From: Ignavibacteriota bacterium
GTDB lineage: Bacteria; Bacteroidota; Ignavibacteria; UBA10030; UBA6906
Length of the DNA stretch: 64,000 bases
Assembly: GCA_963801355.1 (NCBI GenBank)
Contig: CAWDEM010000008.1
Span: 224,001-288,000 of the forward strand
Reading direction: 5' to 3'
A model generated the notes under the pieces. The model was not told the origin of the DNA. It ran no database searches and saw only the letters and a program-made list of their open reading frames with translations. Positions 4,468-44,501 of this stretch are shown in pieces (position 1 is the stretch's first letter; every line of letters starts with the position of its first letter). A program made the translations under genes and the position numbers.

Positions 4468-5412
4468 ATGACACGCACGGATTTCCAACTCGGAAGCGTA
4501 CACTGCAAGAATCGCGTTTTCGTCGCTTCAGGGACGTTTGGTTACGGCGACGAGTGCCTGGATCTCGTGGATGTGGCGCGTCTCGGCGGCATCATGACGA
4601 AGTCGCTCTCGCTTAAGCCGCGGGACGGGAATCCTCCCCCCCGGGTCGTGGAAACGCCCGGCGGGATGCTGAACTCAATTGGACTTGCGAATATCGGCGT
4701 GCGTCGCTTCATCGCCGATAAACTTCCCATCCTACGGTCGATCGATACCACAATCGTGGCGAACATTGCGGCAAGCAGCGTGGATGAATACTGTGCCGTG
4801 CTGGATCTGCTTGAGGAAGCAGGCGGTGTGCACGCGTATGAAATCAACGTCTCATGCCCGAACGTCAAGGAGGGGGGACTTAACTTCGGCACCGACTGTG
4901 CGATGACCGCCGGAATCACCCGGCGACTCCGGGCGCGCACGGGAAAACCGTTAATCATCAAACTCACACCCAATGTCGCCCACATCTCCTCGTTTGCGCG
5001 CGCCGTGCAGGATGAAGGGGCTGACGCCGTGTCGGTCATCAATACGCTGATCGGCATGGCCATCGATGTGCGTACGCGCAAACCGCTGCTTTCGACAGTC
5101 ACCGGCGGCCTCTCCGGCCCGGCCATAAAACCGGTAGCGCTGGCCAAGGTCTACGAAACCGCGCGCGCAGTCCACATCCCCGTCATCGGTATCGGAGGCA
5201 TCATGTGCGCCACCGATGCCATTGAATTCTTCCTCGCCGGAGCGACCGCCGTGCAGGTCGGGACCGCCAACTTCATCGATCCGGCTGCCGCGGTTACAGT
5301 AGCCGACGGGATCGCAACCTGGTGCGACGAGCACGGTATTGACGACGTCGCGAAACTTGTCGGGGCGCTCGACGCGCAAACCGGTGTGTCGGTGCTGGAG
5401 AGCTGGTTGTGA
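4468..5412 (+). CDS. pyrD: Dihydroorotate dehydrogenase, class 1B catalytic subunit
   Basis: ASGTFG, GNPPPR, NSIGLAN, EINVSCPN, KLTPN, GGLSGPAIKP. Confidence 0.95.
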   Translation: MTRTDFQLGSVHCKNRVFVASGTFGYGDECLDLVDVARLGGIMTKSLSLKPRDGNPPPRVVETPGGMLNSIGLANIGVRRFIADKLPILRSIDTTIVANIAASSVDEYCAVLDLLEEAGGVHAYEINVSCPNVKEGGLNFGTDCAMTAGITRRLRARTGKPLIIKLTPNVAHISSFARAVQDEGADAVSVINTLIGMAIDVRTRKPLLSTVTGGLSGPAIKPVALAKVYETARAVHIPVIGIGGIMCATDAIEFFLAGATAVQVGTANFIDPAAAVTVADGIATWCDEHGIDDVAKLVGALDAQTGVSVLESWL

Positions 5413-6749
5413 AACGGTCAGAGGGGGAGTACCGCCGAACGCTCACCTACCTGTACGGCCTGCAGTACCGCGGCATCAAGTACGGCCTCAAAAACATCCG
5501 CGCACTCCTCAGAGCCTGCGGCAATCCGGAGTGCACATTCGCTGTCGTGCATGTCGCCGGCACAAATGGCAAAGGTTCCACCGCATCGTTCATCGCATCA
5601 ATTCTTCAGGAAGCCGGCTACCGCACCGGGCTCTACACGTCCCCGCATCTCGTCGACTTCACCGAACGGATCCGGATAAATGGGGCTCGGATATCAGAAG
5701 AACGACTCGTGATGTATGCGCGGGAAATGAGGCCCGCTTTCGAACGGACGCAGGCGACGTTCTTTGAAGCCACCACCTGTATTGCCTTCCGGTACTTTGC
5801 AGACGAACGGATCGAGATCGGGGTGATCGAGACGGGTCTGGGGGGCCGTCTGGATGCCACGAACGTTGTGATCCCCGTGGTGAGCATCATTACCAACGTG
5901 GGAATGGACCACACGGAGTATCTGGGAACCACTCTCCGCGCCATCGCAAGGGAGAAGGCCGGCATTATCAAGGCTGGAGTGCCCGTGGTGACCGCGTCGA
6001 CATCAGCTGAAGTGCTCGCGGTGCTTCGGTCCGCCGCAAAGAGCCGGGGAAGCGCATTTCATCACATGTGGGATGTCATTGCGCCATACATTGTGGGGAG
6101 CCGGAAGGGATGTTCAGAGGTCCGCTTCAGTGGTTCACGGTGGCGTATCCCGCCCGCGCGTCTCGGGTATCCGGGCGTGCACCAGGTCGACAATGCCGCC
6201 CTTGCCGTCTCTGCTCTGTCTCTTGCCGCGGGGCGGCACAGACTTGCCCGGCTCACACCCGGTGCCATTGTACGCGGGCTGAGGCATGTATTTCGCAATA
6301 CCGGCCTTGGGGGACGGATGCAGACCCTTACCCACGACGGCGTTCAGGTCACGCTGGATGTCGCGCATAACCCTGACGGCATGAAAGTCCTGGCTGACAC
6401 GCTGTCAGACCAGCACGTGGTGTATCCCGTGGCGGTATTCGGGATCGTGCGTGACAAGGATGCGGGTGCGGTGCTGGATGAACTACGCAGGGTTGCCCGG
6501 GAGGTAATCACTGTCGCGCCTACGACCGAGCGGGCCCGTAGCAGCCGCGAAATTGCGCGGATTGCCACCGAACGGGGAATTCTGGCGAAGGATGGCGGCA
6601 GTGTGTCCCGGGGGCTGGCTCTGGCCCTGAAGACGGTTCGTGCCGGCAATCCTCCCCCGCGGCGGAAGCTCCTCGTGGCCGGATCGCACTATCTGGTGGG
6701 TGAAGCGCTGCAATTTTTCAAGACGGCGGAAAGGCATGAAAAACCTTGA
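5409..6749 (+). CDS. folC: Folylpolyglutamate synthase/dihydrofolate synthase
   Basis: HVAGTNGKGS, YTSPHL, ETGLGGRLDATN, DVAHNP. Confidence 0.95.
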   Translation: MKRSEGEYRRTLTYLYGLQYRGIKYGLKNIRALLRACGNPECTFAVVHVAGTNGKGSTASFIASILQEAGYRTGLYTSPHLVDFTERIRINGARISEERLVMYAREMRPAFERTQATFFEATTCIAFRYFADERIEIGVIETGLGGRLDATNVVIPVVSIITNVGMDHTEYLGTTLRAIAREKAGIIKAGVPVVTASTSAEVLAVLRSAAKSRGSAFHHMWDVIAPYIVGSRKGCSEVRFSGSRWRIPPARLGYPGVHQVDNAALAVSALSLAAGRHRLARLTPGAIVRGLRHVFRNTGLGGRMQTLTHDGVQVTLDVAHNPDGMKVLADTLSDQHVVYPVAVFGIVRDKDAGAVLDELRRVAREVITVAPTTERARSSREIARIATERGILAKDGGSVSRGLALALKTVRAGNPPPRRKLLVAGSHYLVGEALQFFKTAERHEKP

Positions 6750-16163: not shown

Positions 16164-16851
16164 AAAGACCACTGTCCGCCTGCTCCTTGTTGAGGACAAC
16201 AAGGATTTTGCCCACCTCGTCCAGCTCTTCCTGAGACGGCATAGCGGAGCGGCGTTCGAAGTCCGCTGGGCCGCGAATGGACGCGATGCGTTGAAGGAAA
16301 TCGAAGCCGATGCCGATCTGGATGTCATTCTCATGGACTACTTTCTCCCCGGAAAGAACGGCCTGGATGTCACGCGCGAAATCCGGGAGCGGGGGATCCT
16401 CATCCCTGTGGTGTTTCTGACCGTCAACAAAGACTTTGACCTTGCCGTGGAAGTGCTGAAGCTCGGCGTTGAAGACTATCTCGTTAAGGAGGAGATCTCG
16501 ACCCCCGTGCTGCCCAAGACCATCCTGAGTGTCATTGAACGGCAGACCTTGCGCGACGAGTTGACGGAGCTGGAGATATCCCGGAAGCGTTTGCAGGTGA
16601 TTCAGGAGCTTGTCGTGAAGATCATCGGAGAACTCCGCGCGCCGATGTCCGGAATGCGGAAGGGTGTTGACGGGCTGCTTGAGGTCCATGGTGAAGACAA
16701 TCTGCGCGCGTATCTCGTCATCATCCGGGACAACCTGATCCGGATGGAAAGAAAGATGGTGCGGTTGGGCGAACTCAGGACGGACAGGACCATTCCCTAC
16801 GTCAGGGATATCCGGATGTTTGATCTCTCGGAGGAGGCGCCCCAGCAATGA
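16156..16851 (+). CDS. Response regulator with a C-terminal HisKA-like helical domain
   Basis: LLVED, ILMDYFLP, FLT, DYLVK; ATG at 16156 overlaps the kinase 3' end. Confidence 0.85.
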   Translation: MDEKTTVRLLLVEDNKDFAHLVQLFLRRHSGAAFEVRWAANGRDALKEIEADADLDVILMDYFLPGKNGLDVTREIRERGILIPVVFLTVNKDFDLAVEVLKLGVEDYLVKEEISTPVLPKTILSVIERQTLRDELTELEISRKRLQVIQELVVKIIGELRAPMSGMRKGVDGLLEVHGEDNLRAYLVIIRDNLIRMERKMVRLGELRTDRTIPYVRDIRMFDLSEEAPQQ

Positions 16852-17696
16852 AGTGCAGGATAGCGGTCGCGCAGATTGATGCGGTCCTGGGTGATCCGTC
16901 CAAGAACATCGCGATCCATTGCGAAGCAGCGGAGCGTGCACGGCAGGCCGGTGCACAGATGGTGCTTTTCCCGGAGTTGAGCCTCACCGGGTATTCTGTG
17001 AAGGATCTCAACTGGGATCTCGCGATTCGCACCGTTGCGCCGCCTGATGTCTATGCCCCGCTGTTGGAGCTGAGCCGTGGCATCAGCATCGTTGCGGGCG
17101 GAATTGAAGAAGGCGATTCGTTCGGTATTTACAACTCAGCATTCCTGTGTGAGGACGGCCGCATGCGCTCCGTGCACCGGAAGGTGTATCCGCCGACGTA
17201 CGGGATGTTTGAGGAGATGCGGTATTTCAGCCGGGGGGATGTGGTCCGTGCGGTTGACACGCGCATCGGCAGGATCGGCGTGCTTGTATGCGAAGATCTC
17301 TGGCATATTGCTCTGCCGTATCTTCTCATGCTGGATGGGGCAGAGATGGTTGTGTCGCTGACGGCGAGTCCCACGCGTCTTGGCGGGGATGCGGGATCGC
17401 TACGGTCTGCTGATGCCCTCGGCGAGCATCACCGCACGTACGCCCGGCTGCTCTCGGTGTACCTGGCGTTCTGCAATCGCGTGGGGTTCGAAGACGGCGT
17501 GAATTTCTTCGGCGGTTCGGAAGTGATCGGCCCGGCGGGCGATGTCAAGGTGAAAGCACGGTTATTCGAGCCGGATCTTCTTTTTGCGGACCTGGACGAC
17601 AACGAGATACGGCGCGCTCGCCGTTTTTCCCGTCATACGCTCGATGACGATCCGGCGCTGGTGATGCGTGAGCTCGCGCGGCTGCTCGCGCGCTGA
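16848..17696 (+). CDS. Carbon-nitrogen hydrolase (nitrilase fold, resembling the NAD synthetase glutaminase domain)
   Basis: FPELSLTGY, HRK, PTYGMFEEMRYF, VCEDLW: Glu-Lys-Cys triad. Confidence 0.88.
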   Translation: MKCRIAVAQIDAVLGDPSKNIAIHCEAAERARQAGAQMVLFPELSLTGYSVKDLNWDLAIRTVAPPDVYAPLLELSRGISIVAGGIEEGDSFGIYNSAFLCEDGRMRSVHRKVYPPTYGMFEEMRYFSRGDVVRAVDTRIGRIGVLVCEDLWHIALPYLLMLDGAEMVVSLTASPTRLGGDAGSLRSADALGEHHRTYARLLSVYLAFCNRVGFEDGVNFFGGSEVIGPAGDVKVKARLFEPDLLFADLDDNEIRRARRFSRHTLDDDPALVMRELARLLAR

Positions 17697-17708
17697 CATC
17701 CGGACTGC

Positions 17709-18410
17709 TCAGATGCCCAGGAACAACCTCTGGGCAAGGTAGTCCGGCAACCGTGCAGCAAGTATTGCGGAGGCCGTGGTTTCGATATTGTAGTCAACCC
17801 GCATGACTTCAAACGTCGCAGCCGTCGTATCAAGCAGCCCGAATGAAATCCGGGGGTTTCCATCGCGTGCCTGTCCCACACTTCCAACGTTGATCAGGTA
17901 CCGCAGCCCATCCCGGAACGTGTTGACGGAGCCGTCTTCTCCAACGATGACGGGGATGTGTGTGTGGCCGATAAAGCAGATGCGCGTGCTGAACGCCATG
18001 AAGCAGCGTTCGGCGTCCGGCCATGCAAAGATGTACCGCCAGTCTTCAGGGTTCAGGGGGGAAGCATGAGCAAGCGTGATGTCGTCCACCACCCGCAGCA
18101 TGGGCAACCCGCGGAGATACTCCACGTTGGCTTGTGTCAGATGCGTTCTTGTCCACCGGATGGCGCTCTTACCATAGATATTGAAGTGGTCAAGCGGCAA
18201 TTCGTCAATTGCGCCGCTGTCGTGGTTGCCTTTGACGACAGCTGAGCACCGTTCCTGGACAATTTGGATGCACTCGTTTGGCGACGGCCCGTAGCCGACA
18301 ATGTCTCCTAAACAGTACACCCGGTCAACGGAGAGACGGTCAATAACCTCGAAGGTCCGCTGGAGGGCCGTAAGATTGGAGTGAATATCTGATATAACGG
18401 CTATCCGCAT
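17709..18410 (-). CDS. Metallophosphoesterase (YfcE/ApaH-like)
   Basis: SDIHSN, GDIVGYG, GNHD, HAS, GHTH, NVGSVG. Confidence 0.9.
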   Translation of the reverse strand: MRIAVISDIHSNLTALQRTFEVIDRLSVDRVYCLGDIVGYGPSPNECIQIVQERCSAVVKGNHDSGAIDELPLDHFNIYGKSAIRWTRTHLTQANVEYLRGLPMLRVVDDITLAHASPLNPEDWRYIFAWPDAERCFMAFSTRICFIGHTHIPVIVGEDGSVNTFRDGLRYLINVGSVGQARDGNPRISFGLLDTTAATFEVMRVDYNIETTASAILAARLPDYLAQRLFLGI

Positions 18411-18473
18411 GGCCCAATTCGTTTAGACTTGAAAATCTACGAAAAAATGACATATATGCAAACACAATTACAC

Positions 18474-19496
18474 ATGCCATTCAACCGGGACATACTCGCG
18501 CTTGATGCGAGGGGAGAGGCGCTGCGTATCACAGAGCGCGTTCGCACACAGGTGTTTCACGTGCTCCACAAGCGCGGAGTGGTTGTGGCCGTCTCAGGCG
18601 GGCTGGACAGTGCTACCTGTGCTGCGCTGTCGGCTCTCGCGGTCGGGAAAAGTCATGTGCTGGCCCTCCTCCTCCCTGACCGGCATTCCTCGATCGACTC
18701 CACACGCCTGGGCAATGAGCTGGCGGGAGCCCTCGGCATTGAAGTTCTCACCCGGGATATCACCCCTCTCCTTGAATCCGCGGGATGCTATCGAACACAA
18801 CTGGAGGTGGTACGATCTGTTTTCCCTGAGGCTACGCCGGAGTGGACATTCAAGATCACGCTCCCCTCGTTGCTGGATCAGGAACGGTTGAACATGCCAC
18901 GATTGACCGTGCAGACGCCCCGGGGTGAAATGCATACCCAGCGCCTCAACCACAGCGACTATCTCACACTCGTCGCAGCCACGAACTTCAAGCAGCGTAT
19001 CAGAACGATGCTTGCCTATTTCCATGCCGACGCCCGCAATTTTGCAGTGTGCGGCACACCCAACCGGCTGGAATACGATCAGGGCTTTTTTGTCAAAGGG
19101 GGCGACGGGCTGGCGGACTTCAAGCCGATCGCGCATCTGTACAAGGCGCAGGTGCGCGCAGTTGCGTCGGCGGTGGGGGTTCCTGAGGAAATCATTGCGC
19201 GCACACCGACCACGGATACATTCCCGCTCAGCCAGGGACAGGATGAATTCTATTTTGGGGTTCCGCATGACCTGATGGATCTCTGCCTGTATGGATGCAA
19301 CAACGGGTATCCTGCGGCCGAGGTCGCGGCTGCCCTTCAACTCAACCCCACTGTTGTCGAGCGGGTCTATCGGGAAATCACCGGCAAGCGTCGCACGACA
19401 TTGCCTCTTCATCTCCCTGCACTCCTGGTGGATGAAGTCACCGAAATCAAGCTCATGGAGGATCAGGCCCTGTGTGCGGCATCGCCGGAATCATAA
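18474..19496 (+). CDS. nadE: NH3-dependent NAD synthetase-like ATP pyrophosphatase (AsnB/ACP-cluster type)
   Basis: SGGLDS PP-loop, NFKQRIR, GTPNRLE, FVKGGDG, PIAHLYK; start uncertain (18429-18474). Confidence 0.8.
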   Translation: MPFNRDILALDARGEALRITERVRTQVFHVLHKRGVVVAVSGGLDSATCAALSALAVGKSHVLALLLPDRHSSIDSTRLGNELAGALGIEVLTRDITPLLESAGCYRTQLEVVRSVFPEATPEWTFKITLPSLLDQERLNMPRLTVQTPRGEMHTQRLNHSDYLTLVAATNFKQRIRTMLAYFHADARNFAVCGTPNRLEYDQGFFVKGGDGLADFKPIAHLYKAQVRAVASAVGVPEEIIARTPTTDTFPLSQGQDEFYFGVPHDLMDLCLYGCNNGYPAAEVAAALQLNPTVVERVYREITGKRRTTLPLHLPALLVDEVTEIKLMEDQALCAASPES

Positions 19497-21473
19497 ATTT
19501 CGGTGACCAGCGCCCTCCACCGGATCTTGACCGGCTCCGGGGGATGGCGCGGGCACTCCGTCACCGTGGGCCCGACGACTCGGCGATCTACAGGGACCGG
19601 CGGGCCGGGCTGGTACATACCCGGCTATCGATTATTGATCTCACGACCGGTGCGCAGCCTCTCGCGAATCAAGACGAATCACTCTGGATCGTCTACAACG
19701 GCGAGCTGTTCAACTATATCGAGATCAAACGTGATCTTGAAGCCGCCGGCCACGTGTTTCGCACGCGGTCGGATACGGAGGTCGTCCTTCATGCGTATGA
19801 AGAGTACGGCATCGATTGTTTTACCCGTTTCAACGGACAGTGGGCACTGGCCATCTGGAATGTGCGCGAAGGTTCGACTCCTTCTGGCCCGTGACCGCAT
19901 GGGGGTCCGGCCGTTGTTCTTCCATGTGAGCAATAACCGCCTCTGGTTTGCCAGCGAGGTAAAGGCGTTGTTCGCCGACAATGAGGTGCCGCGGACTTTT
20001 TCGTCTTACGGGTTGAATCAGGTGTTCACATTCTGGAGCACGGTGGCGCCTGCGACCGTGTTTGAGGGAGTGAAGCAACTCCGTCCCGGGACCGTGCGCA
20101 TCTATCAGCGCGCTGGCACGTTCAGCCAGAAGTGCGTCTGGGCTCCTGCGTTTGCCGGGGATCAGGCGTCGTCACGCATGCCGTTACGCGATGCCGCCGA
20201 ACGGCTCAAGGAGCGGCTGGTTGAGGCAACGACGCTCAGGCTCACCCGCGCGGATGTGCCGGTCGGGAGTTACCTTTCGGGTGGACTTGACAGTTCGGTG
20301 GTCGCTTCGCTCGGATTGGCGGCGCATCCCGCCGACTACCGCACCTATTCGGTGCGCTTTGCCGATGCCGAGTTCGATGAATCATACTACCAGCGAATGA
20401 TGGCGCGGCACCTGGGAAGCACTCACAGGGAAATCGCAGTGACGCGTTCCGACATTGCGCGCGTGTTTCCTGAGGTGATACGCCACACGGAGGCGCCGGT
20501 CCTTCGGACCGCCCCGGCACCGATGTACATTCTTTCCGGTCTTGTCAGAGAGGACGGCATCAAGGCGGTGTTGACGGGGGAGGGAGCTGACGAGCTACTG
20601 GCCGGCTATGACCTCTTCCGTGAATCGGAAATCAGAAGATTCTGGGGACGCGCGCCGGAGTCCGCCGTGCGGCCGCTTCTCTTCCAGCGGCTTTATCCGT
20701 ATCTTGCACGATCGCCGCAGTCCGCACAGGCGCTGGCCCACAATTTCTGGAAGCAGGGGATTGACCGCACGGACATTGCGTGGTTTTCCCACGAGCCACG
20801 CTGGCGCACGACGATGCAACTCCGGAGATTTCTGCGTCCGGAATTCCGTTCCGTCGAACCGGAGGCGGAGTTCATCGAAGGTGCAGTGCCTTTGCCCGGG
20901 AAGATTTCACAATGGGGATCTCTGGAACGCGCCCAGTACATTGAGATCGTCACTCTCCTCTCGGGATATCTCCTTTCTTCGCAAGGAGACCGGATGCTCA
21001 TGGCACATTCGGTGGAGGGACGGTTTCCGTTTCTGGATGCCGGAGTGATCGACTTTTGTCTTGCGCTTCCTTCAACGCATAAGCTGACCGGTCTCAGGGA
21101 AAAAGTCATTTTGAAAACTCTTGCTCACGGCGTCATTCCGGAAGAAATCATCAACAGGCCGAAACAGCCTTACAGGGCCCCCGACGCGCTGAGTTTTCTT
21201 GTCGATGCGCCGGAGTATGTCGCCGAGATGCTGTCCCCGGAATCGTTGGACAGTGTGGGCGTGTTCGACACCAGGACTGTTACGATGCTCCACGAAAAAT
21301 GCCGCCGGGTCGTCCGGGAACAGGGAAACGACGCGCTGCTGAGCAACACCGACAACATGGGACTGGTGGGAATTCTCTCAACGCAACTGCTGCATCACGA
21401 AATTCTCAGGGGGGGGAATGCGGCCCCTACGCAAGACCGCACGATACCAGAGCGACTCATCGAAAAAACATGA
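19472..21473 (+). pseudogene. asnB: Asparagine synthase-like glutamine amidotransferase split by a one-base frameshift near 19871-19874 (pseudogene or sequencing error)
   Basis: First frame MCGIAG, HRGPD, RLSIIDL, YNGE, SDTEV; second frame LARDRMG, LSGGLDS, TGEGADE, DRMLMAHSVEGRFPFLD. Confidence 0.85.
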
Positions 21474-21733
21474 ATCCAACACACGGTGAAATCCGGACCG
21501 CTGTACTGCGGTTCCTCCAAACGAACCTTCTGTTTGATGAAACCCGGCAGATTCCCGATGCGCAATCCCTGCTCGGCGCAGGCATCGTGGATTCCACGGG
21601 GATACTCGAGTTGATAGGCTTTCTGGAGCAGACGTACGACGTGAAATTTCGTGATGATGAGCTTGTGGCTGAGAACTTCGATTCGCTGGGTGCGATCACT
21701 TCCTTCATGTCTGCAAAACTGAGCGGCACATGA
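21470..21733 (+). CDS. Acyl carrier protein
   Basis: GIVDSTG phosphopantetheine Ser motif, ENFDSL; ATGA overlap with asnB. Confidence 0.9.
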   Translation: MNPTHGEIRTAVLRFLQTNLLFDETRQIPDAQSLLGAGIVDSTGILELIGFLEQTYDVKFRDDELVAENFDSLGAITSFMSAKLSGT

Positions 21734-21769
21734 TCTTCCGGAGTCCGGGGGAAGGCGGAGGAACAGTCC

Positions 21770-23290
21770 ATGCTACTTCATAACTATCTCTCTTACGCGG
21801 CGCAACAGCATCCGAAGAAGACAGCGCTCGTGGCGGGTGGCGGGCGGTGGACGTATCACACCCTGGATGAGCACGCATCTGCAATAGCGGGGCATCTTCA
21901 TGCCCGCGGGCTTGTTCGGGGTGATCGGGTAGCGGTGTATCTGGAGAATAATGTCGAAGAGGTCGCTGCGATTTTTGGTGTGCTGCGTGCCGGCGGGTGT
22001 ATCGTGGTCGTCAATCCGACGACACAGGTTGATCGCCTCGGCTTCATCCTGTCACACTGCGGGGCACGGTTTCTGATCGCACCGGTGGACAAAAAGGGCC
22101 TGGTGTTGCGTGCGATCGAGCAGGGAGCGGGGTCGGCGGAGGTCATATGGGTAGGAGGTGCCCCCCCTGAAGGGAAGGGTGTGTCGTTTGATGATTTTTT
22201 GAAGCCGCTGAAAGCGGTCACGCTGCCACGGGTTATTGACGAAGATCTTGCCTCCATTATCTACACCTCGGGTTCTACCGGTAAGCCGAAGGGGGTGACG
22301 CACCTCCACCGGACCATTGATGTTGCCGTCGACTCCATCATCGAGTATCTCGGGAACAATGATGAAGACGTCATCCTGGACGTGCTTCCGCTCTCGTCCA
22401 GCTACGGGCTCCTGCAGCTGCTTGTCACTGTGAAAACCTGCGCGCGGTTGGTGTTGGAGAAGGGGATCGGATACCCGTTTGAAATCATCAAGAAGATTCG
22501 TGAGGAAAGGGTAACCGGCATGGCCGGGGCGCCGACCGTCTGGGCGATACTCCTGAAGCTGGAGAACATAAGACCGTCTGATGTCGCCTCATTACGGTTT
22601 ATCACGAACGCGGCGGCGGCCTTGCCTGCCAGTTTCGTGCCACGTCTGCGGGCTGCGTTTCCGAAAACGAAGCTCTTTCTCATGCACGGGCTGACGGAAT
22701 GTCTCCGCACAACGTACCTCCCGCCGGATCAACTCGACACCCGTCCGACATCTGTGGGCACGGGCATGCCCAATGTGGAGCTCTGGGTGCAGGATGCGAA
22801 CGGTAACCGTCTCCCGCCGGGGGTTCCGGGCGAGATGGTGGTGCGCGGATCGAACATCATGGCCGGATACTGGGGTGATCCCGAGGCAACGGCCAGGATG
22901 ATTCTCCCCGGGCGCTATCCCTGGGAGCGCATTCTCCGGACAGGCGATCTGTTCAGGTCCGATGAAGAAGGGTACTTCTATTTCGTTGCCCGCAGCGACG
23001 AACTCATCAAGAGCCGGGGCGAAAAGGTCAGTCCGATCGAAGTGGAAGACGTCGTCTACCAGATGCCGGAGGTGCTGGAAGTCCGGGTCATCGGTGTTCC
23101 CGACCAGGTGCTCGGTCAGGCGATCCGTGCAGAAATCGTTCTCAAGGACGGACAGCAGTTAAGCGTGCAGCACGTGAAGGCGCATTGCCACAAGCACCTG
23201 GAAGATTTCAAAGTGCCGCATCAGGTGGAGTTCGTTGCGAGCCTCCCGAAGACGCAGGGGGGGAAAATCAAACGGTCGACGGAATCATGA
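21770..23290 (+). CDS. Class I adenylate-forming enzyme (acyl- or aminoacyl-ACP ligase)
   Basis: YTSGSTGKPKG, HGLTE, RTGD, LPKTQGGKI. Confidence 0.9.
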   Translation: MLLHNYLSYAAQQHPKKTALVAGGGRWTYHTLDEHASAIAGHLHARGLVRGDRVAVYLENNVEEVAAIFGVLRAGGCIVVVNPTTQVDRLGFILSHCGARFLIAPVDKKGLVLRAIEQGAGSAEVIWVGGAPPEGKGVSFDDFLKPLKAVTLPRVIDEDLASIIYTSGSTGKPKGVTHLHRTIDVAVDSIIEYLGNNDEDVILDVLPLSSSYGLLQLLVTVKTCARLVLEKGIGYPFEIIKKIREERVTGMAGAPTVWAILLKLENIRPSDVASLRFITNAAAALPASFVPRLRAAFPKTKLFLMHGLTECLRTTYLPPDQLDTRPTSVGTGMPNVELWVQDANGNRLPPGVPGEMVVRGSNIMAGYWGDPEATARMILPGRYPWERILRTGDLFRSDEEGYFYFVARSDELIKSRGEKVSPIEVEDVVYQMPEVLEVRVIGVPDQVLGQAIRAEIVLKDGQQLSVQHVKAHCHKHLEDFKVPHQVEFVASLPKTQGGKIKRSTES

Positions 23291-24093
23291 AATACTGTCT
23301 CATATGCGCGGTGCTTCTCCTCTCCGGCTGCCGGGGAGATTCGCCGCAGGAAGGTCCATTGAATATGAAGGGCGACGTGTCTGCCGATCTTGCCGCGGTG
23401 AAAACGATGCGGGTATTCTTCGGGCATCAATCGGTGGGGAAAAACCTTCTGGACGGTTTGCTGGAAATCGCCCGGTCGCGGGGTGATTCGGTCCAGATTG
23501 CCGCACTCTCTGCCGATGGCATGCCTGCGGCTGCCGGCATCGCTCATGCATACATTGGCCAGAATCAGGACCCCGGGTCGAAGTGCGATTCCTTCCTGTC
23601 GACGGTGACACGGATCGCCGGTAACGAGCCTGATGTTGTCTCTATGAAATTCTGCTATGTGGATATTGAAGAACGGAGCGACCCGCAAGCAATATTTGAC
23701 CGGTACCGGAAAACGATAGAAGGGGTCCGGGAGGCTGCTCCCCGCGCCAGGATCCTGCACATGACTGCTCCTCTGACTGCCCGGACTCCAACCTGGAAAC
23801 AGTTGGTGAAGAGGCTTCTGGGTCGTGGCGGTTCGGGGGATGAGGCGGCGAAGATGCGGGCGCAGTTCAACCGGTTGATGCGGGAGGGGTTTCCGGGGGA
23901 TGGGCTCTTCGACCTGGCCCGCTATGAGTCGACATTTCCCGATGGCCGGCGTCACACGGTTGACATCGACGGTACCGAAGCAGAGTTCCTGGTGGATGAG
24001 TACACGAGTGATGGCGGGCATTTGAACGAGCGGGGGCGCAGTGCGGTAAGTGGAGAGCTGCTGCATGTTCTGGCATCGATGAAACTTCGCTAA
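23287..24093 (+). CDS. Lipoprotein with an SGNH-like hydrolase/acyltransferase signature
   Basis: Lipobox LLLSGC, FGHQSVG (block I Ser), DGGHLN (DxxH); ATGA overlap with the ligase. Confidence 0.65.
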   Translation: MKYCLICAVLLLSGCRGDSPQEGPLNMKGDVSADLAAVKTMRVFFGHQSVGKNLLDGLLEIARSRGDSVQIAALSADGMPAAAGIAHAYIGQNQDPGSKCDSFLSTVTRIAGNEPDVVSMKFCYVDIEERSDPQAIFDRYRKTIEGVREAAPRARILHMTAPLTARTPTWKQLVKRLLGRGGSGDEAAKMRAQFNRLMREGFPGDGLFDLARYESTFPDGRRHTVDIDGTEAEFLVDEYTSDGGHLNERGRSAVSGELLHVLASMKLR

Positions 24094-24184
24094 GGTGATG
24101 GCCTCAGTGTAAGGAGTGGTATTTGTTTGACTTCGGAAGATTTGTATATTATTGTCGTTGAGCAACGCCCGGAAGGAACACGGC

Positions 24185-24544
24185 ATGCCGAAGATTCTTG
24201 TGATCGATGACGACGAGATCACGCTGGCCCTGATGCACAATGTGTTGGAGGACGAGGGGTACGAGATCTGTTCTACGGCGGATGGTCCGCAGGGGATACA
24301 GATTTACAGGGAGCGTGAGCCGGATGTTGTCATCCTGGATCTTGCGTTGCCGAGTATGAACGGGTTGGAGGTGTTGCGGAAGATCCGGAAGCAGGATCCG
24401 GACGCGAAGATCATTGTTGTCACCGGGCACGGATCGGAAGAGTCGGCGAAGGTTGCGTTGAAGTATGGAGCGTGGGGTTACATTGAAAAGCCGGTGGATT
24501 TTTCCACGTTTCTGCATCAAATCCGCACTGCGGCGGAGCCGTGA
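24185..24544 (+). CDS. Single-domain response regulator
   Basis: LVIDDD, ILDLALP, VTG, IEKP; upstream TTGACT-N17-TATTGT at 24127-24155. Confidence 0.9.
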   Translation: MPKILVIDDDEITLALMHNVLEDEGYEICSTADGPQGIQIYREREPDVVILDLALPSMNGLEVLRKIRKQDPDAKIIVVTGHGSEESAKVALKYGAWGYIEKPVDFSTFLHQIRTAAEP

Positions 24545-24577
24545 GGGCGCGATGTGGTGGGAGGCGGGCTTTCGCGA

Positions 24578-24606
24578 TTGATATTCCCCTGTCATTTTGC
24601 TAAATT
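24578..24606 (+). promoter_or_regulatory. sigma70-type promoter for tRNA-Lys
   Basis: TTGATA-N17-TAAATT. Confidence 0.55.
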
Positions 24607-24637
24607 GAAGGCCTTCAAAACAGCCCAACAAGGGCTC

Positions 24638-24709
24638 GGGCGCGTAGCTCAGGGGTAGAGCATCTGCCTTTTAAGCAGAGGGTCGGTGGTTCGAGCCCAC
24701 CCGCGCTCA
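24638..24709 (+). tRNA. tRNA-Lys(UUU), CCA not encoded
   Basis: Acceptor GGGCGCG/CGCGCTC, D arm GCTC/GAGC, anticodon arm TCTGC-CTTTTAA-GCAGA, T arm GGTGG-TTCGAGC-CCACC. Confidence 0.96.
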
Positions 24710-25204
24710 CAAAGTAAATCAATGGGTTAGTGGTTCTCTCAGCTCTTCATTATATCCCCCCGGTTCTCCTTCTTCAAACGGTCCAACCAAATTGCTGTCT
24801 TGACAGGTCTCCGGCAAGACGAAATGCTCAATCCGCCCTCCAGGATCTATTCCTTGGCAAGTTACTGGCACTTGAGTTGGCATGAAACGGTGAAATTTCA
24901 GGAGCTTGACTTTCGTTGCCTGGGTTGCTATGTTGGTGCCACATAGGTCTCCATTCGGTGGACGGGACGGTTGCCGTATGAGACCTGAGGGCGCAAGTCC
25001 GATTTTTGCCTCTGCTCTTACACTCCCATCTCTCGCGCGGTCCTTCCAGCCACATCAGTCCTCGTCGTAGTATCTGTCGTATGGCTCGAGGATGGAGTGT
25101 GTCTGCTGTCAAGTGCATCTGGCAATCGTCCTACCCAACGACTCATCGAGTCCTGCTTCAAACCGCAGTCATTCCAGCGCCGAGTCCGTAGAAAGGACGA
25201 AAAG

Positions 25205-29969: not shown

Positions 29970-30641
29970 CTAGTAATGCTCGACGTATTCGGGAGAACTG
30001 TGCAGAGATGCAGTGGTATCGGTGAGGGATGCTGGATACTCGGGCCGCGGAGGCTGAAGGAACGCGGCTGAATTCTCCATGCGGTTGAGTTCTTGGTCGT
30101 GTTGATCAGGGAACGTCACGACGAGCATCGGGCGTATTTGCACGACCGCATTATCCGGAATGTTCTTCTCAACGACCGCGTTTGCGCCGATTTTGACATT
30201 GTTCCCGATCTTGATCCTTCCTGCGATTTTCGCTCCGGGTGCGATATATACATTGTCCCCGAATGAGGGGAAACCCAGGATATTCCTGGCTTTGGAATAG
30301 CCCAGCGTAATTTCGTGTGTGAGGGTGAAATTCTCGCCTGCAACGACTTCCCCTGCGACAAAAATGCCTCCGTAGTGCCAGATATAGAACCCCGGGCCGA
30401 TTTCGGCTTCGGGGCCGATGAAAATCCCCCATTTCGATCGTATGCGGTGCCCCTGCCAGGCGACGAATGGTCGCAATAGCAATCTCACGATAAATGGCTG
30501 TGTTCGCAGCCAGTGGGCCATCCGGTACAAGGCGACAGCCTGAACTCCGGGGCTGCGGAGGCACATGCATATCCGTTTCGCCCTTGAACCCCTGGCGAAG
30601 AGGTAAGCCCTATGGAGATCCTGTTTGATCATTGCACACAT
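29970..30641 (-). CDS. Serine O-acetyltransferase-like hexapeptide-repeat acetyltransferase (EPS-type)
   Basis: YRMAH, GIFIGPEAEIGPG, FGDNVYIAPGAKI, IGNNVKIGANAVV. Confidence 0.8.
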   Translation of the reverse strand: MCAMIKQDLHRAYLFARGSRAKRICMCLRSPGVQAVALYRMAHWLRTQPFIVRLLLRPFVAWQGHRIRSKWGIFIGPEAEIGPGFYIWHYGGIFVAGEVVAGENFTLTHEITLGYSKARNILGFPSFGDNVYIAPGAKIAGRIKIGNNVKIGANAVVEKNIPDNAVVQIRPMLVVTFPDQHDQELNRMENSAAFLQPPRPEYPASLTDTTASLHSSPEYVEHY

Positions 30642-31486: not shown

Positions 31487-34400
31487 TCACGGTATTTTTA
31501 CATCCAGGGTCACCTCTGTGCCTTTTCCCGGCGTGCTCCGGATGGCAATGGTCCCTCCAAGCTGCGCCGCCCTTCTTTGCATCGTGGAAAGGCCGTTCCC
31601 GGTGGACGGTTGGGAGGTGTCAAATCCCTTCCCGTCGTCCGAGATCGATATCAGGAACCGCCCCCCATGAACGCTGATGCGGATTGCCACGTGGCCGGCT
31701 GCCGCATGATGCACGATATTGCTGAGGATCTCCTTGTAAATGAGCACGACGTCCCGGCAAAAAGCCATCGGGAGATGTGTCGCCGCAACGCGATCGTCCC
31801 TCTGGAACGTAGAGTCCACTCCGGCGAGGAGCTTGGAGGAAATCCCCTGGAGATGATCGATAATGTTGCCGGTGGTGTCGTGTTCGGGGTTGATGAACCA
31901 GACGATGTCTCTCAAAGCGTCGGATGTCGAGCGAGCTGCTTTGCTGATGTCCAGCAGATGTGCGGCTGCCGCCGGCGGGACGCTCATCCTGTTACGAACG
32001 AGATCTGCGAGTACCGCAATACTCGCGAGGCTGCTGCCGATGTCATCGTGCAGGTCGGAAGCAATGCTGAGTCGCATCCGTTCCACTTTCAAGAGGGAAG
32101 CGACGCGCAACCGGTACGCAATTGTGACGGCGGTGAGCAGGAACAGCACTCCCAGCACCCGGAACCAGAGAGTTTCCCAGAAGGGAGGAGCGATGATAAC
32201 GCGCAGCGACATCCCCGCTTCGTTCCAGATCCGGTCGTTGTTGGATCCGCGGACGCGGAATACATATCGGCCGGGAGCGAGGTCGGTGTAGACAGCCAGC
32301 CTGCGTGTTCCAGCATCCACCCATGACTTGTCGAGACCCTCGAGAGTGTAGGCATATGAGTTGCGTGCGGGCAGCGAATAGTCCAGGGCCGCGTATTCGA
32401 ACGAGAAGAAGTTTTCCGTGTGATTAAGCACTATCTCACCTGTAGCCCACCCGGTGGAGTCCGGCGGAACCGGGGTGTTGAACAAGTTGAATCCGGTAAT
32501 GACGATGGGCGGGACATGGGGATTGAGGGCGATGCGGTGCGGGACGATGGCATTGAAACCGTTGATGCCTCCGAAGTATAGTGTCCCATCGGACCCCCGG
32601 CACGATGCATTGAAGTTGAATTCGTCCGCCTGCAGGCCGTCGTTCCGTGTAAAATTCCGGAATGATCCGCTGTCCGGATCAAAACGCGAAATCCCGTTGT
32701 TCGTGCTCATCCAGAGCTTACCGCTTTCGTCCTCTTGGATTGCGTACACCACATTGTTCGGGAGTCCGTGCTGCACTGTGTAGTGGGTGCATTGCCCGTT
32801 GTGCGGATCCATCCTGTTCAACCCGCCACCGAATGTGCCGACCCAGAGGTTCCCTCGACGATCCTCGAAAATGGTCTGGACGTAGTCATTGCTCAGGCTC
32901 CCCGGATTGCCGGGTGCATGCCTGTACCGGTGAAACGTCCCGGCTCCTGGATCGAAACGTGCCAGGCCACCGCGGGCAGTTCCCACCCATTGCGATCCCG
33001 AGCGATCTCTGAAAATGCATCTGATGTCATTGTCCGGAAGACCGTTCGGGTTTTGCCTGTCATACGCGAACGTGCGGATCACCGTACCTGCCGGGTTCGT
33101 AACGAGGATGCCGGCTATCCATGTGCCCACCCAGAGGTCGCCATTGCGGTCCTGCGCGAGAGAGCTGATATACTCATTCAGACGCCTTGCGTTGTTATCG
33201 GGATCGGTCGTGTAGCGTTGAAACCGTTGATGCTTTCGGTCCAACCGCGCCAGACCCCCGCCGTATGTTCCCACCCATACATCGCCGTGGTTGTCTGTGA
33301 AGAGAGCGGCAACATAGTCGTGGGGCAGGCTGCCGGGATCGTGCGGATCGTGGCGGTAGTGCCGGAATTGTCCGGAGCGCGGGTCGAATTGATTCAAACC
33401 GGCGTCTTCTGTCCCGATCCAGATGAATCCAAGGGAATCCTCGCACATGGCGAAGACCCTTTTACCGTGTAGTCCGCTGCCATCCCTGATATCGCGAGTA
33501 TAGAGAGGGAACTTCTGCACGTAAGGTGAACTGACGCTGAGGCCGTTCGACGTGCCGAACCAGAGGACTCCACCGTCATCCTCGAAAAGTGAAGTGACGA
33601 CATCGTCGGAGAGGGAGTTGGAGACAAAAGGTGAATAGCGGTACCGGATAAACCGGCGTGTCGCGCTGTCGAAACGTGCAGCACCTGCTCCCATTGTCCC
33701 GACCCAGAGGCTGCCTCTTGCGGTCGCGGAAGAGCGAGCGGACGATGTCGCCCGGGAGCGATGTTGAATCGCGAGGGTCCGTGCGAAAATGCTCGAATGT
33801 CGAACGGGAGCGGTGAAAGAGGTTCAGCCCGCCGCCCCAGGTTCCAACCCACAGATCCCCGTTGTCCGCCTCCGAAAGACCGGTAATTCTGTCGTCGGAG
33901 ATTGACGCGTCGTCGCCGGCCTTGTGCCGGAAGTCCCTGACGGTTCCACGGCGCGGGTCGTAGCTGAGGAGCCCGGCGGAGTACGTGCCGATCCAGATGA
34001 TACCGTCCCGGTCAGTCACCGCGCAGAACAGCGCAGTGCGCCGCGGCATGGGGAGGGTGCTGAACAGTTCCGGCACTCTGATGAAGCGGCGCGTGGTGCG
34101 GTCGAAGCGGTTCATGCCGCCCCCCGCCGTGCATGCCCAGAGCGTTCCCAGGGAGTCTTCCAGCACCGCCGTCACGCGATCGTGACTGATTGTCGTAGTG
34201 TCCGTCGGGTCGTGCCGGTAACGGGTGAAGGAATTGCGGATAGGGTCGAAACAGTTGATGCCACCGCCCCAGGTGCCGATCCAGAGCAGACCGTCACGGT
34301 CTTCGTGTAGTGACCAGATGTAGCTGCTTGAGAGGGAATTGGAATCGAGCGGATCGTATCGATAGGTAACAAAGGAGTATCCGTCGTACCGGTTCAGCCC

Positions 34401-34601
34401 ATCTTCAGTGCCGAACCACATAAACCCCCGGCGATCCTGTGCCATGCAGAGAACTACACTTTGCGAGAGGCCATCATCTGTTGATATGCGCCGGAAGACG
34501 TGACCGGGCCCGGGCACCTGACCATATCCAGGATTGGAAAGCAGCGGTGCCAGGACAAAGAAAGCCAAAAGTATTTCCCGCAGTGGAGTCGTGTGCAACA
34601 T
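31487..34601 (-). pseudogene. Reg_prop beta-propeller + Y_Y_Y + HisKA_3 sensor kinase split by a one-base frameshift near 33716-33720
   Basis: GLSQS, repeated D..G.LW.GT..GL, YAYTLEG, PPFWETLWF, DLHDDIG, DDGKG; reads RDRK-(extra A)-GSLWVGT across the break. Confidence 0.85.
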
Positions 34602-34702
34602 GCAAAAAAGATAGTGGTACGCGACGGAAATGTCAAACGCATACCTGCTATTTTCAAAAGTTTTTGATACCTTAACACTATGCATATTATCCGGAGGACG
34701 CC

Positions 34703-40174: not shown

Positions 40175-40738
40175 ATGCTATCGGCCCACGAAGAGGACAA
40201 CAACCGCGAGAAGACCCCGATCTCCTCTCCTCAACCAATAGTACCCTTGAGCCCACGCTGGTACGCTCTGTATCTCCGTTCCCGCTACGAGAAACGTGCG
40301 CACCAGCTCCTTCTCGGCAAAGGTGTTGAGTCGTTTCTCCCGCTGATTGAAGAAGTACACACCTGGAGCGACAGAAAGAAAGTAGTTGAAGAGCCGTTGT
40401 TCCGCGGGTACCTGTTTGTCAGAACCGATCTCAAGGACCGGATTTCCATACTTGAGACAGACGGCGTCGTGCACTTTGTCCGCATCGGTGCCAGACTGAG
40501 TGCGATTCCCGATGAGCAGATCAACTGGGTCAGGATACTGGTCGGGCACCCGGACCGTGTCGTGCGTGAAGAGTACATGTCGGAAGGGCAGAGGGTGCGC
40601 GTCAAAGCCGGACCTATGATGGGGGTGCAGGGGTACGTGTTGAAGGTGAAGTCATCCACCCGCGTGGTCGTGTCTCTCGACGCGATAGCACGATCGGTCT
40701 CGATCGATATCGATCCTGAGTTGCTCGAGCTGCTGTAG
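40175..40738 (+). CDS. upxY: UpxY-family NusG paralog (antiterminator)
   Basis: WYALY.R.RYEK, WSDRKKVVEEPLFRGYLFV, KOW-like GQRVRVKAGP. Confidence 0.9.
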   Translation: MLSAHEEDNNREKTPISSPQPIVPLSPRWYALYLRSRYEKRAHQLLLGKGVESFLPLIEEVHTWSDRKKVVEEPLFRGYLFVRTDLKDRISILETDGVVHFVRIGARLSAIPDEQINWVRILVGHPDRVVREEYMSEGQRVRVKAGPMMGVQGYVLKVKSSTRVVVSLDAIARSVSIDIDPELLELL

Positions 40739-40752
40739 AAAGCACTGTCATT

Positions 40753-42795: not shown

Positions 42796-44501
42796 AGACC
42801 TTTGCGACACCACTCGTGTGTGCATCTCTCCTCCTGTGCGCCACCGCCGCGTACGCACAACAGGAAAACGTCCCGGTGTCAAACCCGGTGTACAATTTCC
42901 TGAAAAGGATGGAAGTGAAGGGAGTAATCGAACGCTACCACGATGTGGTTCTGCCGCTCTCCCGCGCTGAGGTGGCGAGGTTTCTCGTGGCGGTCGAAGA
43001 AAAGAACGACCGCCTCTCCGATGCCGAACGAGCGTGGCTCAGTGACTTTTTTGCCGAGTTCCGTTTTGAGATCGACGGGACGACAGGGAATTTTCACAGG
43101 CTGATCGCATCGGAGGAGAGTACTTTCGGTGCAGCCGCAGGAGAGATATTCTGCAGCCGCGAAAAGTATCTCTATTTTCATACTGATTCTACGATTTCGA
43201 TATTCGCCAACGTGTTGTTGGATGTCGACGCACGGTTGATCAGCGGGGATGCTCTCGGCTCGGAACACACGGAGTACCTGCAGGTGGGGGGGAGGGCGAG
43301 GGGCAGCATCTATGGCCACCTGGGATACTACGTTCAATGGACGAACGCGCAGTTCTGGGGAAGCAGAGAACTGCTTTACCGGGATCCCGTCATCTCACAG
43401 AGTCACGCTCTGCAGGTGGGGAACGCACAGAACTTCGATATCGCGGAGAGCTATCTTCGATACGGCACCGACGTGGTCTCTCTCCAGGTAGGTCGGGAAC
43501 GTCTCCTTTGGGGGACCGGTTACGATCAGAAGATGACATTGTCGGACAACGTCCGTCCGTATGACTTTGTCCGGTTCGATGCGAAGTTCAAGTCGCTCAA
43601 GTACACATTTCTCCATGCATGGCTGGTCGGAACGCGCGGACAGGTCGTCTTCACCGTTCCGTCGGATACCTCCGCCCGCTTCACCGAAGACGTCGCGGCT
43701 GACAAGTACTTCGTCGCGCACAGGCTGGAATTTTCGCTCCCCGGACTTTTTGACTTCGGTTTCCAGGAGATGCTCATCTACAGCAACCGCTCTCCGGACC
43801 TGGCGTATCTGAATCCCCTGACGATCATCGAATCATCACAACGTTCACGGGGCGAACGGGATAACGCCTACTGGGCATTCGACGTCCAGCTCCACTTCAT
43901 TCCGCAAATCGAGGTCAGCGCAAGCATCACCTTCGACGACATCAACCTGCCGATCATCTTTTCCGACAAATGGAATGCGATGTATGCCTGGCAGGCGGGT
44001 ATGTTCTATGCAGACATGTTCGGAATCGCAAATACCAGTCTCATGCTGGAGTACACGCGGATCGAGCCGTATATCTACTCACATGCCAGGTCGCGCGAGG
44101 ACAATTACACGAGTCTGGACCGCAACCTCGGCCCGCGGATCGGGCCGAACGCCGATTCCTGGTTCATCCGGATCGATTACCTCCCTTCGCAGAATTTGAC
44201 GTTTTCTTTGCGGACCAGTTTCGACCGCAAGGGAGAGAACATACGCGATGCCGGCGGGCAGGTCATCAAGAATGTGGGTTCGGACGTCTTTCTGCCGCAC
44301 CGGGGGGGCGATCCGGAGACCAAGGTCTGGCTGGACGGGATTCTGTACAAGTCGCGCACCGTGGATTTCCGGGTTACATGGGAGATCGTACACCAGATCT
44401 GGCTGGAAGGGCGGGGCCTATTCGAGTCTGTGGAGAATGCTGCCGTGGGGAGCCTGGACAAGAACGCCACGGCGGTCTTTCATGTACGTGCGGAATTCTA
44501 A
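42792..44501 (+). CDS. Wzi-like capsule assembly outer-membrane protein
   Basis: Signal peptide, VYNFLKRM..LPLSR, GRERLLWG, HRLEF, YLNP, EYTRI.PY.YSH, terminal F. Confidence 0.7.
   Translation: MKTFATPLVCASLLLCATAAYAQQENVPVSNPVYNFLKRMEVKGVIERYHDVVLPLSRAEVARFLVAVEEKNDRLSDAERAWLSDFFAEFRFEIDGTTGNFHRLIASEESTFGAAAGEIFCSREKYLYFHTDSTISIFANVLLDVDARLISGDALGSEHTEYLQVGGRARGSIYGHLGYYVQWTNAQFWGSRELLYRDPVISQSHALQVGNAQNFDIAESYLRYGTDVVSLQVGRERLLWGTGYDQKMTLSDNVRPYDFVRFDAKFKSLKYTFLHAWLVGTRGQVVFTVPSDTSARFTEDVAADKYFVAHRLEFSLPGLFDFGFQEMLIYSNRSPDLAYLNPLTIIESSQRSRGERDNAYWAFDVQLHFIPQIEVSASITFDDINLPIIFSDKWNAMYAWQAGMFYADMFGIANTSLMLEYTRIEPYIYSHARSREDNYTSLDRNLGPRIGPNADSWFIRIDYLPSQNLTFSLRTSFDRKGENIRDAGGQVIKNVGSDVFLPHRGGDPETKVWLDGILYKSRTVDFRVTWEIVHQIWLEGRGLFESVENAAVGSLDKNATAVFHVRAEF

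Follow-up and report, generated by a model that had tools for sequence, protein, structure and literature searches.

Positions 18474 to 24093 of a 64,000-nucleotide stretch of an Ignavibacteriota genome (NCBI GenBank assembly GCA_963801355.1, contig CAWDEM010000008.1, positions 224,001 to 288,000; the whole stretch is hereafter called the window) carry five plus-strand genes, identified by open reading frame (ORF) and domain searches of the window. They encode a paralog of NH3-type NAD synthetase, here called NadE2, an AsnB-type amidotransferase, an acyl carrier protein (ACP), a stand-alone adenylating ligase and an exported lipoprotein with an SGNH fold. We propose, with a probability of about 0.55, that the cassette formed by the first four makes an amide-bearing acyl group on its dedicated ACP, for decorating a surface polysaccharide. 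A first-pass annotation of this DNA had pictured a Dlt-like envelope system, in which the ACP would receive an acid, the acid would be amidated and the SGNH lipoprotein would hand it to a surface glycan, with NadE repurposed away from NAD. The core of that idea, in which an acid would be held on a dedicated ACP, amidated and destined for the envelope, and NadE would be repurposed, is well supported by comparative genomics; the evidence does not support the SGNH lipoprotein as the agent of a Dlt-like transfer. The five genes, with the two pieces of asnB given separately, are as follows.

18474..19496, plus strand: NadE2 (NH3-type NAD synthetase paralog); NF002048 at 433.4 bits (cut-off 313), PF02540 at 141.6 bits (cut-off 21)
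19472 (GTG start)..21473, plus strand: AsnB, whole span, with a Met-Cys start, as expected for a class II amidotransferase
19472..19894, plus strand: N-terminal glutaminase piece of AsnB; GATase_6/7 with E 1e-30, TIGR01536 positions 1-134
19878..21473, plus strand: C-terminal synthetase piece of AsnB, in a second frame; PF00733 at 284 bits, TIGR01536 at 302.5 bits over positions 133-517
21470 (ATG start)..21733, plus strand: ACP of 87 aa with serine motif GIVDS; weak carrier-protein matches
21770..23290, plus strand: stand-alone AMP-binding adenylating ligase; PF00501 at 268 bits, PF13193
23287 (ATG start)..24093, plus strand: SGNH-fold lipoprotein of 268 aa; lipobox LLSGC with Cys15, GHQS and DGGH motifs

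The nadE and asnB genes overlap by 25 nt, asnB and the ACP gene as well as the ligase and SGNH genes overlap by 4 nt each (ATGA), and 36 nt separate the ACP gene from the ligase gene; NadE2 has alternative starts at 18429, 18447 and 18456. The five genes and three overlapping junctions described in the first-pass annotation are thus as stated, except that asnB had been taken as one frame and is split in the window. A scan of positions 16700-25200 for sigma-70 promoters and terminators was uninformative, with 4 and 6 sites versus 3.4 and 7.7 expected.

A four-gene cassette in many phyla

The core of the system is a four-gene cassette, consisting of a NadE paralog of family NF002048, an AsnB, an ACP and a VinN-like ligase, which occurs in many phyla and in shuffled order. 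A nadE-ligase-ACP-asnB cluster of Sinorhizobium meliloti (SMb20649-SMb20652), cited in the earlier annotation, does exist on pSymB, where the order is asnB-ACP-ligase (adenylate-forming enzyme)-nadE; on a Mesorhizobium plasmid, the order is nadE, asnB, ligase, ACP. The rhizobial proteins are each 38-55% identical to those of the window (for S. meliloti, 49% for NadE2, 47% for the ligase, 38% for the ACP and 45-47% for AsnB). While the same four genes are present, the S. meliloti cluster differs from the window in gene order, and has no SGNH or polysaccharide genes nearby.

Within the phylum of the window, we analyzed a sample of 301 genomes, 14 of which, including the window's own, contain NF002048. 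In the 13 other genomes, this NadE adjoins a ligase in every case and an AsnB in 12, while an ACP was found by tblastn in 8 and by Pfam in one more (L033, whose ACP homolog reaches PF00550). The four core proteins of the window all have tblastn matches in L007, L008, L013, L031, L032, L034, L035, L036 and L039. In a genome of the window's own order (L030, G285:C94, 9285-12245), the genes are arranged as NadE2-ACP-ligase without asnB, with a response regulator gene adjoining on the opposite strand.

For a wider view, contigs representing one genome per species were scanned with an alignment of NadE2, which yielded at least 585 relatives, and the best 80 loci were surveyed using small hidden Markov models (HMMs) built in this analysis. 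These 80 loci come from Ignavibacteriae (the closest, at 63%), Myxococcota, Acidobacteriota, Planctomycetota, Desulfuromonadales, Nitrospira and Gemmatimonadota, and also from Verrucomicrobia, Actinomycetota, Spirochaetes, Fibrobacterota and alpha-, beta- and gamma-proteobacteria. The partner genes were counted in all loci and in those with at least 6 kb on both sides of NadE2:

Best 80 NadE2 loci: AsnB in 55, ligase in 59, ACP in 56, all three in 43, any in 70
48 NadE2 loci with at least 6 kb on both sides: AsnB in 37, ligase in 41, ACP in 37, all three in 32, any in 44

This arrangement is far beyond chance, because the core genes are linked in 43 of the 80 loci, across many phyla, and in 12 of the 13 phylum genomes. 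Considering that gene order varies widely while the linkage persists, the distribution argues for a functional unit. Our literature searches turned up no publication that addresses what the cassette does, nor any that connects NadE, AsnB and an ACP in polysaccharide loci.

NadE2, the carrier protein and its ligase

NadE2 shares with NAD synthetases the PP-loop fold signature and its SGGxDS motif, in which S41, G42, G43, D45 and S46 are invariant (alignment A1), and it scores above the cut-offs of both PF02540 and NF002048 ("NAD(+) synthase"). It differs from them in an insertion of about 65 residues, which interrupts the PF02540 match into two stretches, appears as a gap at query residues 103-169 in the alignment to the closest solved relative (Pyrococcus horikoshii NadE, 2e18, 101 bits), and is conserved with invariant residues of its own. 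It also differs in its linkage to a ligase and an ACP, and in being a second copy. The window's genome encodes a canonical NadE elsewhere (G000:C8:2395722-2396432, 263.9 bits), and canonical NadEs (245-268 bits, PF02540) were found in all 11 genomes checked, i.e., the window's own, 5 of 5 with a stand-alone NadE2 and 5 of 5 cassette-bearing genomes of the phylum. Because the canonical enzyme is present too in 11 of 11 genomes, NadE2 is predicted not to be the housekeeping NAD synthetase of the cell, in agreement with the earlier suggestion of a repurposed enzyme.

We also considered a CN_hydrolase encoded at 16848-17696 (plus strand) as a split glutaminase of NadE2, and rejected it, since none of the 80 cassette loci has such a gene within 10 kb. 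Its best NCBIfam match is NF010588, the glutaminase half of Gln-dependent NadE (141.9 bits), and it lies 0.8 kb upstream of NadE2, behind a metallophosphoesterase gene on the opposite strand. In G285, a CN_hydrolase gene lies 5 kb from the asnB-less cassette.

The ACP of the window has weak NCBIfam matches only (AmcB, 31.7 bits; OlsHI ACP, 29 bits) and does not reach PF00550. More is known of its S. meliloti counterpart: PMC7232532 reports that AcpS converts SMb20651 to the holo form, which SMb20650 acylates in E. coli, and that SMb20650 neither is a FadD nor takes the place of one. The window's genome has one AcpS-type phosphopantetheinyl transferase (PPTase), and the ligase at 21770-23290 presumably loads the ACP.

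What the ligase might load can be judged from its substrate pocket. Over the whole length, its best solved matches are the LgrA adenylation domain and VinN, at about 245 bits each, while among solved proteins VinN leads clearly in the pocket region, with 161 bits versus 96 for the next, and the beta13-beta14 loop aligns without gaps. PMC11253843 describes VinN as a stand-alone enzyme that charges the ACP VinL with 3-methyl-Asp or Asp, in either case recognising the substrate as a beta-amino acid; the amino group is bound by D230, and K330 and R331 are key residues of the loop. The alignment of the two proteins keeps a constant offset of 16 across all marker residues, which correspond as follows.

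VinN D230: window ligase Ser211
VinN F231: window ligase Tyr212
VinN S299: window ligase Ala281
VinN K330: window ligase Leu312
VinN R331: window ligase Arg313

Arg313 is invariant among the 67 cassette ligases. Asp occupies position 211 in only 16 of them, including the rhizobial ones, which also retain the Lys; in the S. meliloti pocket, the Asp and Lys of VinN are thus retained at the positions of the window's Ser211 and Leu312. From these residues we infer that all cassette ligases bind a second acidic group, that one subgroup would take an Asp-like amino acid, and that the subgroup of the window (with L013, L030, L042 and L072) would take an acid in which that amino group is absent or blocked. 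The likeness to the VinN-VinL pair lies in a stand-alone ligase with a conserved R331 and, in VinN, an acidic substrate loaded onto a stand-alone ACP. The differences are the Ser for D230 and the Leu for K330, the amidating enzymes that stand next to the ligase where VinN has a decarboxylase, and a setting that is not a polyketide pathway.

Polysaccharide loci and the SGNH lipoprotein

In most of the non-rhizobial loci examined, the cassette is situated in a polysaccharide locus, which fits the surface-glycan target proposed in the first-pass annotation. Within the phylum, its neighbours include DegT, FdtA, RmlA/C/D, a PglF-like dehydratase (L036), Wzz/GNVR, Poly_export, glycosyltransferases and polysaccharide deacetylases, while SGNH-bearing loci of other phyla contain Wzz, a tyrosine-kinase ATPase, Poly_export, BBP2_2, WecG, Wzx, UDP-glucose dehydrogenase and Bac_transf. 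Directly beside the cassette lies a hexapeptide acyltransferase gene in L013, L031, L032 and L033, and a GNAT gene in L037, L038, L039 and L041, and Sfp-type PPTases are encoded near it in L031 and L032. The hexapeptide profile matches in 19 of the 80 NadE2-centred loci, and cytoplasmic acyltransferases of these two kinds are far commoner neighbours of the cassette than the SGNH protein. In the window, one such gene lies 5.9 kb downstream of the SGNH gene:

29970..30641, minus strand: hexapeptide-repeat (CysE/WcaB-like) acyltransferase; PF00132, EpsC/CysE-like at 99.7 bits, below cut-off

Its product is 45-54% identical to those of hexapeptide genes beside the cassette or the SGNH gene in L013, L042, L122, L127, L139, L143 and L015, and it is possibly the transfer enzyme of the system.

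Some tailoring genes hint at the nature of the acyl group. A methyltransferase gene lies inside or beside the cassette in 5 of the 80 NadE2-centred and 7 of the 80 SGNH-centred loci, and the ligase pocket is of the Asp/Lys kind in each of the five NadE2-centred cases. The methyltransferase of L166 reaches 161.5 bits with hemK_fam (cut-off 115.5) and 195.8 with PrmC (cut-off 199.1); enzymes of the HemK family methylate the side-chain amide of glutamine. In addition, Cupin_8 genes flank the cassette in L031 and L032, and a 2-oxoglutarate (2OG)-Fe(II) oxygenase gene does so in L166. The HemK-like methyltransferase and these oxygenases would fit an Asn/Gln-like moiety in the product, although they are only hints. 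A comparable assembly of genes for an unusual acyl substituent of an amino sugar is rfbKLMNO of Vibrio cholerae O1, which makes the tetronate N-acyl group of perosamine. There, too, an ACP, an AMP-ligase, tailoring enzymes and a hexapeptide transferase are encoded in an O-antigen locus; unlike in the cassette, the tailoring is reductive rather than amidating, and no NadE or AsnB paralog and no SGNH partner is known there.

The lipoprotein has a GDSL_2 Pfam score of 23.9 (cut-off 32.9) and no NCBIfam match, and its 30 nearest ESM Atlas clusters share no Pfam family. Its AlphaFold2 model (pLDDT 88) matches SGNH enzymes in Foldseek with probability 1.0, at 10-18% identity and TM scores of about 0.45-0.5; among the matches are Bacteroides acylhydrolases, PatB, sialate O-acetylesterase, the periplasmic SGNH domain of OafA and platelet-activating factor acetylhydrolase. 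Gly46, His47, Ser49, Asp242, Gly243 and His245 are invariant in 10 of 10 sequences (alignment A2), making Ser49 of GHQS and Asp242 and His245 of DGGH the candidate catalytic residues. The lipoprotein belongs to an unnamed SGNH subfamily, its lipobox marking it as exported. It resembles the PatB and OafA domains in its fold, its Ser/Asp/His in the expected motifs and its extracytoplasmic location, and differs from them in the low identity and TM scores given above and in having no partner of the MBOAT or acyltransferase 3 (AT3) families in the window.

This SGNH family occurs in 3 of the 301 phylum genomes, all three kin and all among the 14 that carry the cassette, and in 8 of the 80 NadE2-centred loci, in one of them as a fragment only; about 90% of cassette loci have no SGNH gene. 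Conversely, in an SGNH-centred survey of the best 80 metagenome loci, at least one core gene was found in 28 of the 80 and in 14 of the 19 with at least 5 kb on one side. Among those with at least 5 kb on both sides, NadE2 with partners was found in 7 of 10, a value inflated by a query alignment built mostly from cassette-linked copies. The SGNH gene often stands directly after the ACP or ligase gene (L057, L069, L076, L112, L132, L134, L155, L166 and the window). The SGNH protein is therefore an optional but largely dedicated accessory of the cassette, and the co-occurrence of the two in several phyla bears out this part of the earlier annotation.

Some further SGNH genes were seen. A second paralog in the window's genome (G000:C4:6839-7549, L015; 41% identical) is divergent from a hexapeptide acyltransferase gene, beside genes for a type IX secretion system (T9SS) cargo protein and Wzz/tyrosine kinase, and has no ligase or ACP. 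In L042, the closest Ignavibacteriae locus, an SGNH fragment of about 100 residues (5393-5707) follows the ligase and is itself followed by a glycosyltransferase and a hexapeptide gene. An alpha/beta hydrolase pair adjoins the SGNH gene in L132, L134, L166, L167, L169 and L190; in L167, no cassette is within reach.

In a Dlt system, too, a free-standing adenylating ligase would be encoded together with a small carrier and an SGNH-like protein outside the cytoplasm, the probable target being a cell-surface polymer; the window adds two amidating enzymes, and its organism is a diderm with type IX secretion. In a Dlt-like route, the ACP-bound acyl group would cross the membrane and the SGNH lipoprotein would transfer it to the surface polymer. 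The tight tie of the SGNH family to the cassette, its frequent position immediately after the ACP or ligase gene and the presence of transferases (PatB and the OafA SGNH domain) among its fold neighbours favour such a route, as do two individual loci: in L038 (G266:C72, 12241-15566), MBOAT and DUF1574 genes lie beside a GNAT gene and the cassette, which is the sole AlgI/AlgJ- or Dlt-like pair seen by any cassette, and in L060 an AT3 gene stands two genes after the SGNH gene. However, as the first-pass annotation had noted, no MBOAT is encoded in the window; the single PF03062 match of the genome lies on another contig (C2), and no AT3 gene is near the cassette, those of the genome being 2.7 Mb away. 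Across the 80 NadE2-centred and 80 SGNH-centred loci, the single-sequence MBOAT profile and the DUF1574 profile have no match, and the AT3 profile has one. Furthermore, the 25 NCBIfam families that match the ligase best do not include DltA, the ACP scores 16.1 bits against DltC (cut-off 68), so neither is a DltA or DltC equivalog, and the SGNH protein matches no DltD family despite its fold and lipoprotein signal. Because no MBOAT accompanies it, we judge the cassette not to be a Dlt system. Since an exported SGNH enzyme cannot directly reach a cytoplasmic ACP, its passing the acyl group to a glycan is topologically unexplained and, with some 90% of cassette loci doing without the gene, this route seems distinctly improbable.

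The nearest named relative of the cassette is the acyl-modification gene set associated with XrtA (exosortase A)/PEP-CTERM, although the cassette is not that system. Both have an extracellular polysaccharide (EPS)-locus setting; TIGR03098 is the best NCBIfam model for the ligase, the amidotransferase model TIGR03108 is near-best for AsnB, and the hydrolase pairs beside the SGNH gene in the six loci listed above are related to TIGR03100/TIGR03101, below cut-offs. The differences lie in the scores (ligase 434.9 bits versus a cut-off of 592.35; AsnB pieces 162.5 and 212 versus 816.9), in the NadE paralog, which is absent from the named XrtA set, and in the PLP decarboxylase, none of which was seen beside the window's cassette. 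An exosortase system was rejected: PF09721 has no match in the 100% complete genome G000, and the XrtA models stay below their cut-offs.

Weighing the readings, and the split asnB gene

The pathway we propose for the cassette would comprise four steps. The VinN-like ligase would adenylate one carboxylate of a dicarboxylic acid or dicarboxylic amino acid, whose second carboxylate would be held by the invariant Arg313, and load it onto the phosphopantetheine arm of the ACP. The free carboxylate would then be converted into a carboxamide by NadE2 with ammonia, by AsnB with glutamine, or by both. Judging from the neighbourhoods, a cytoplasmic hexapeptide or GNAT acyltransferase would move the group to a sugar or amino sugar, the candidate in this genome being the product of 29970-30641. 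After export, the SGNH lipoprotein may remove, move or trim the ester-linked glycan group, as its fold, signal peptide and linkage suggest.

More tentatively, and at less than even odds, NF002048 may be mostly misnamed, and may be the signature of an unrecognised, phylum-spanning, ACP-dependent pathway for carboxamide-bearing decorations (Asn/Gln-like or dicarboxylate monoamide) of capsules, EPS or O-antigens, with a dedicated exported SGNH family that would handle the decoration outside the cytoplasm without an MBOAT or AT3 partner. At least 585 species-representative genomes carry a NadE2 relative, which annotation pipelines label NAD(+) synthase; should NadE2 really amidate an ACP-bound acid, a large part of the annotation of NAD metabolism would be in error. 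Amide-bearing glycan substituents could then be predicted from sequence as a new class, and the long-unexplained SMb20650/SMb20651 pair of S. meliloti would gain a pathway. The link to an exported SGNH family also raises the question of how an acyl group built in the cytoplasm would be processed after export without an MBOAT.

Several points weigh against the proposed pathway. Two amidating enzymes exceed the need of one free carboxylate, and the pathway gives no account of how they share the work or of how an exported SGNH enzyme relates to a cytoplasmic acyl-ACP. The surveys rest on our own small HMMs and on the best 80 loci. NadE2 and the ligase occur without AsnB in seven loci (6 of the 48 well-flanked ones and G285), and NadE2 is alone in 4 of the 48; three lone-NadE2 loci (L053, L059 and L081) adjoin genes for phosphofructokinase and for acetate kinase or phosphotransacetylase. 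One of 14 control genomes also scores above the NF002048 cut-off, and some members of this family may be true NAD synthetases. Such stand-alone members in housekeeping contexts, the control genome and a score that exceeds the curated cut-off for what NCBI calls NAD(+) synthase would all suit a NadE2 that is a second genuine NAD+ synthetase, leaving only AsnB, ACP and ligase to the acyl pathway. We consider this very unlikely, considering that the NadE2-ligase linkage holds across phyla and changes of order, even without AsnB, that NadE2 is never the sole NadE in the 11 genomes checked, and that its insertion of about 65 residues is conserved with its own invariant residues. The setting of some cassettes raises another doubt: no polysaccharide genes surround those of S. 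meliloti and Mesorhizobium, and the nearest clear ones in the window are 16 kb off, at 40175-44501. The product of the cassette might instead be a small molecule in free form, for example a modified amino acid amide or a starter unit, with the polysaccharide neighbourhoods being secondary. The rhizobial cassettes indeed stand alone, the closest solved ligases (VinN, IdnL1, CmiS6 and HitB) and many AsnB relatives belong to natural-product pathways, and the four-gene core includes no release or transfer enzyme. Nevertheless, most of the non-rhizobial loci examined are polysaccharide loci with sugar-modifying and acyl-transfer genes beside the cassette, and no polyketide synthase or nonribosomal peptide synthetase genes were seen beside it in the annotated loci, which makes this alternative unlikely in our view.

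A different concern is whether the operon is intact. In the window, asnB is spread over two frames, with a stop at 19892-19894 closing the glutaminase part and the synthetase part resuming from about 19878, so that the Met-Cys start, GATase_6/7 and PF00733 are all present, but across two frames. The break was traced to a single site:

19877, plus strand: one-base frameshift site in asnB, where related sequences have one base fewer

All four relatives that cover both parts (L013, L042, L122 and L139) have them contiguous and in one frame. We aligned Logan contigs from four metagenome runs (X1-X4) to positions 19400-20400; the frameshift site is covered by X1 and X2 only, not X3 or X4, and X1 may or may not be the source sample. 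The X1 contig matches the window to 19876 and then continues with 12 letters identical to the window from 19878, base 19877 being absent; a 321-base contig of X2 crosses the site with one base missing at 19878 and 9 other differences. Both contigs have a depth of only 2.5 and 3.4, which counts against leaning on them. Removal of base 19877 joins the two frames without a stop, and neither part has other stops. A base inserted during assembly, or a change particular to this strain, is the probable origin of the break, and the frameshift is probably not biological. Reg_prop repeats are encoded by both of two overlapping minus-strand ORFs, 31487-33694 and 33576-34685, of which the downstream one adds Y_Y_Y, HisKA_3 and HATPase; the pair looks like one hybrid sensor kinase split by a frameshift, which would be a second possible assembly indel and points in the same direction. 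Were the asnB frameshift real, the operon would be decaying here and the pathway broken or reduced; the window sequence as given does carry it, G285 has lost asnB from its cassette, and the closest Ignavibacteriae locus (L042) has only a truncated SGNH fragment. Against such decay, the extra base is missing from contigs of two runs, the asnB parts contain no further stops, the remaining genes are all intact with their start-stop overlaps retained, and the split kinase gene hints at assembly indels; we regard it as rather doubtful.

The immediate neighbours of the five genes in the window, none of them a glycan gene, encode a histidine kinase with a response regulator, the CN_hydrolase, the metallophosphoesterase, a further response regulator and a T9SS cargo protein. 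The regulator gene that follows the SGNH gene is the following:

24152..24544, plus strand: single-domain response regulator, directly downstream of the SGNH gene; PF00072 at 115 bits

It is uncertain whether this regulator is part of the system; the gene that adjoins the cassette in G285 is 44% identical to it. Further away, parts of capsule/EPS loci are found at 40175-44501 (UpxY-like NusG, PglF-like 4,6-dehydratase and Wzi) and at 60135-61754 (a Wzx-like flippase). The window also contains a gene for a family B DNA polymerase (46060-48405, minus strand) and one for a double-domain KaiC-like ATPase (50888-52633, plus strand).

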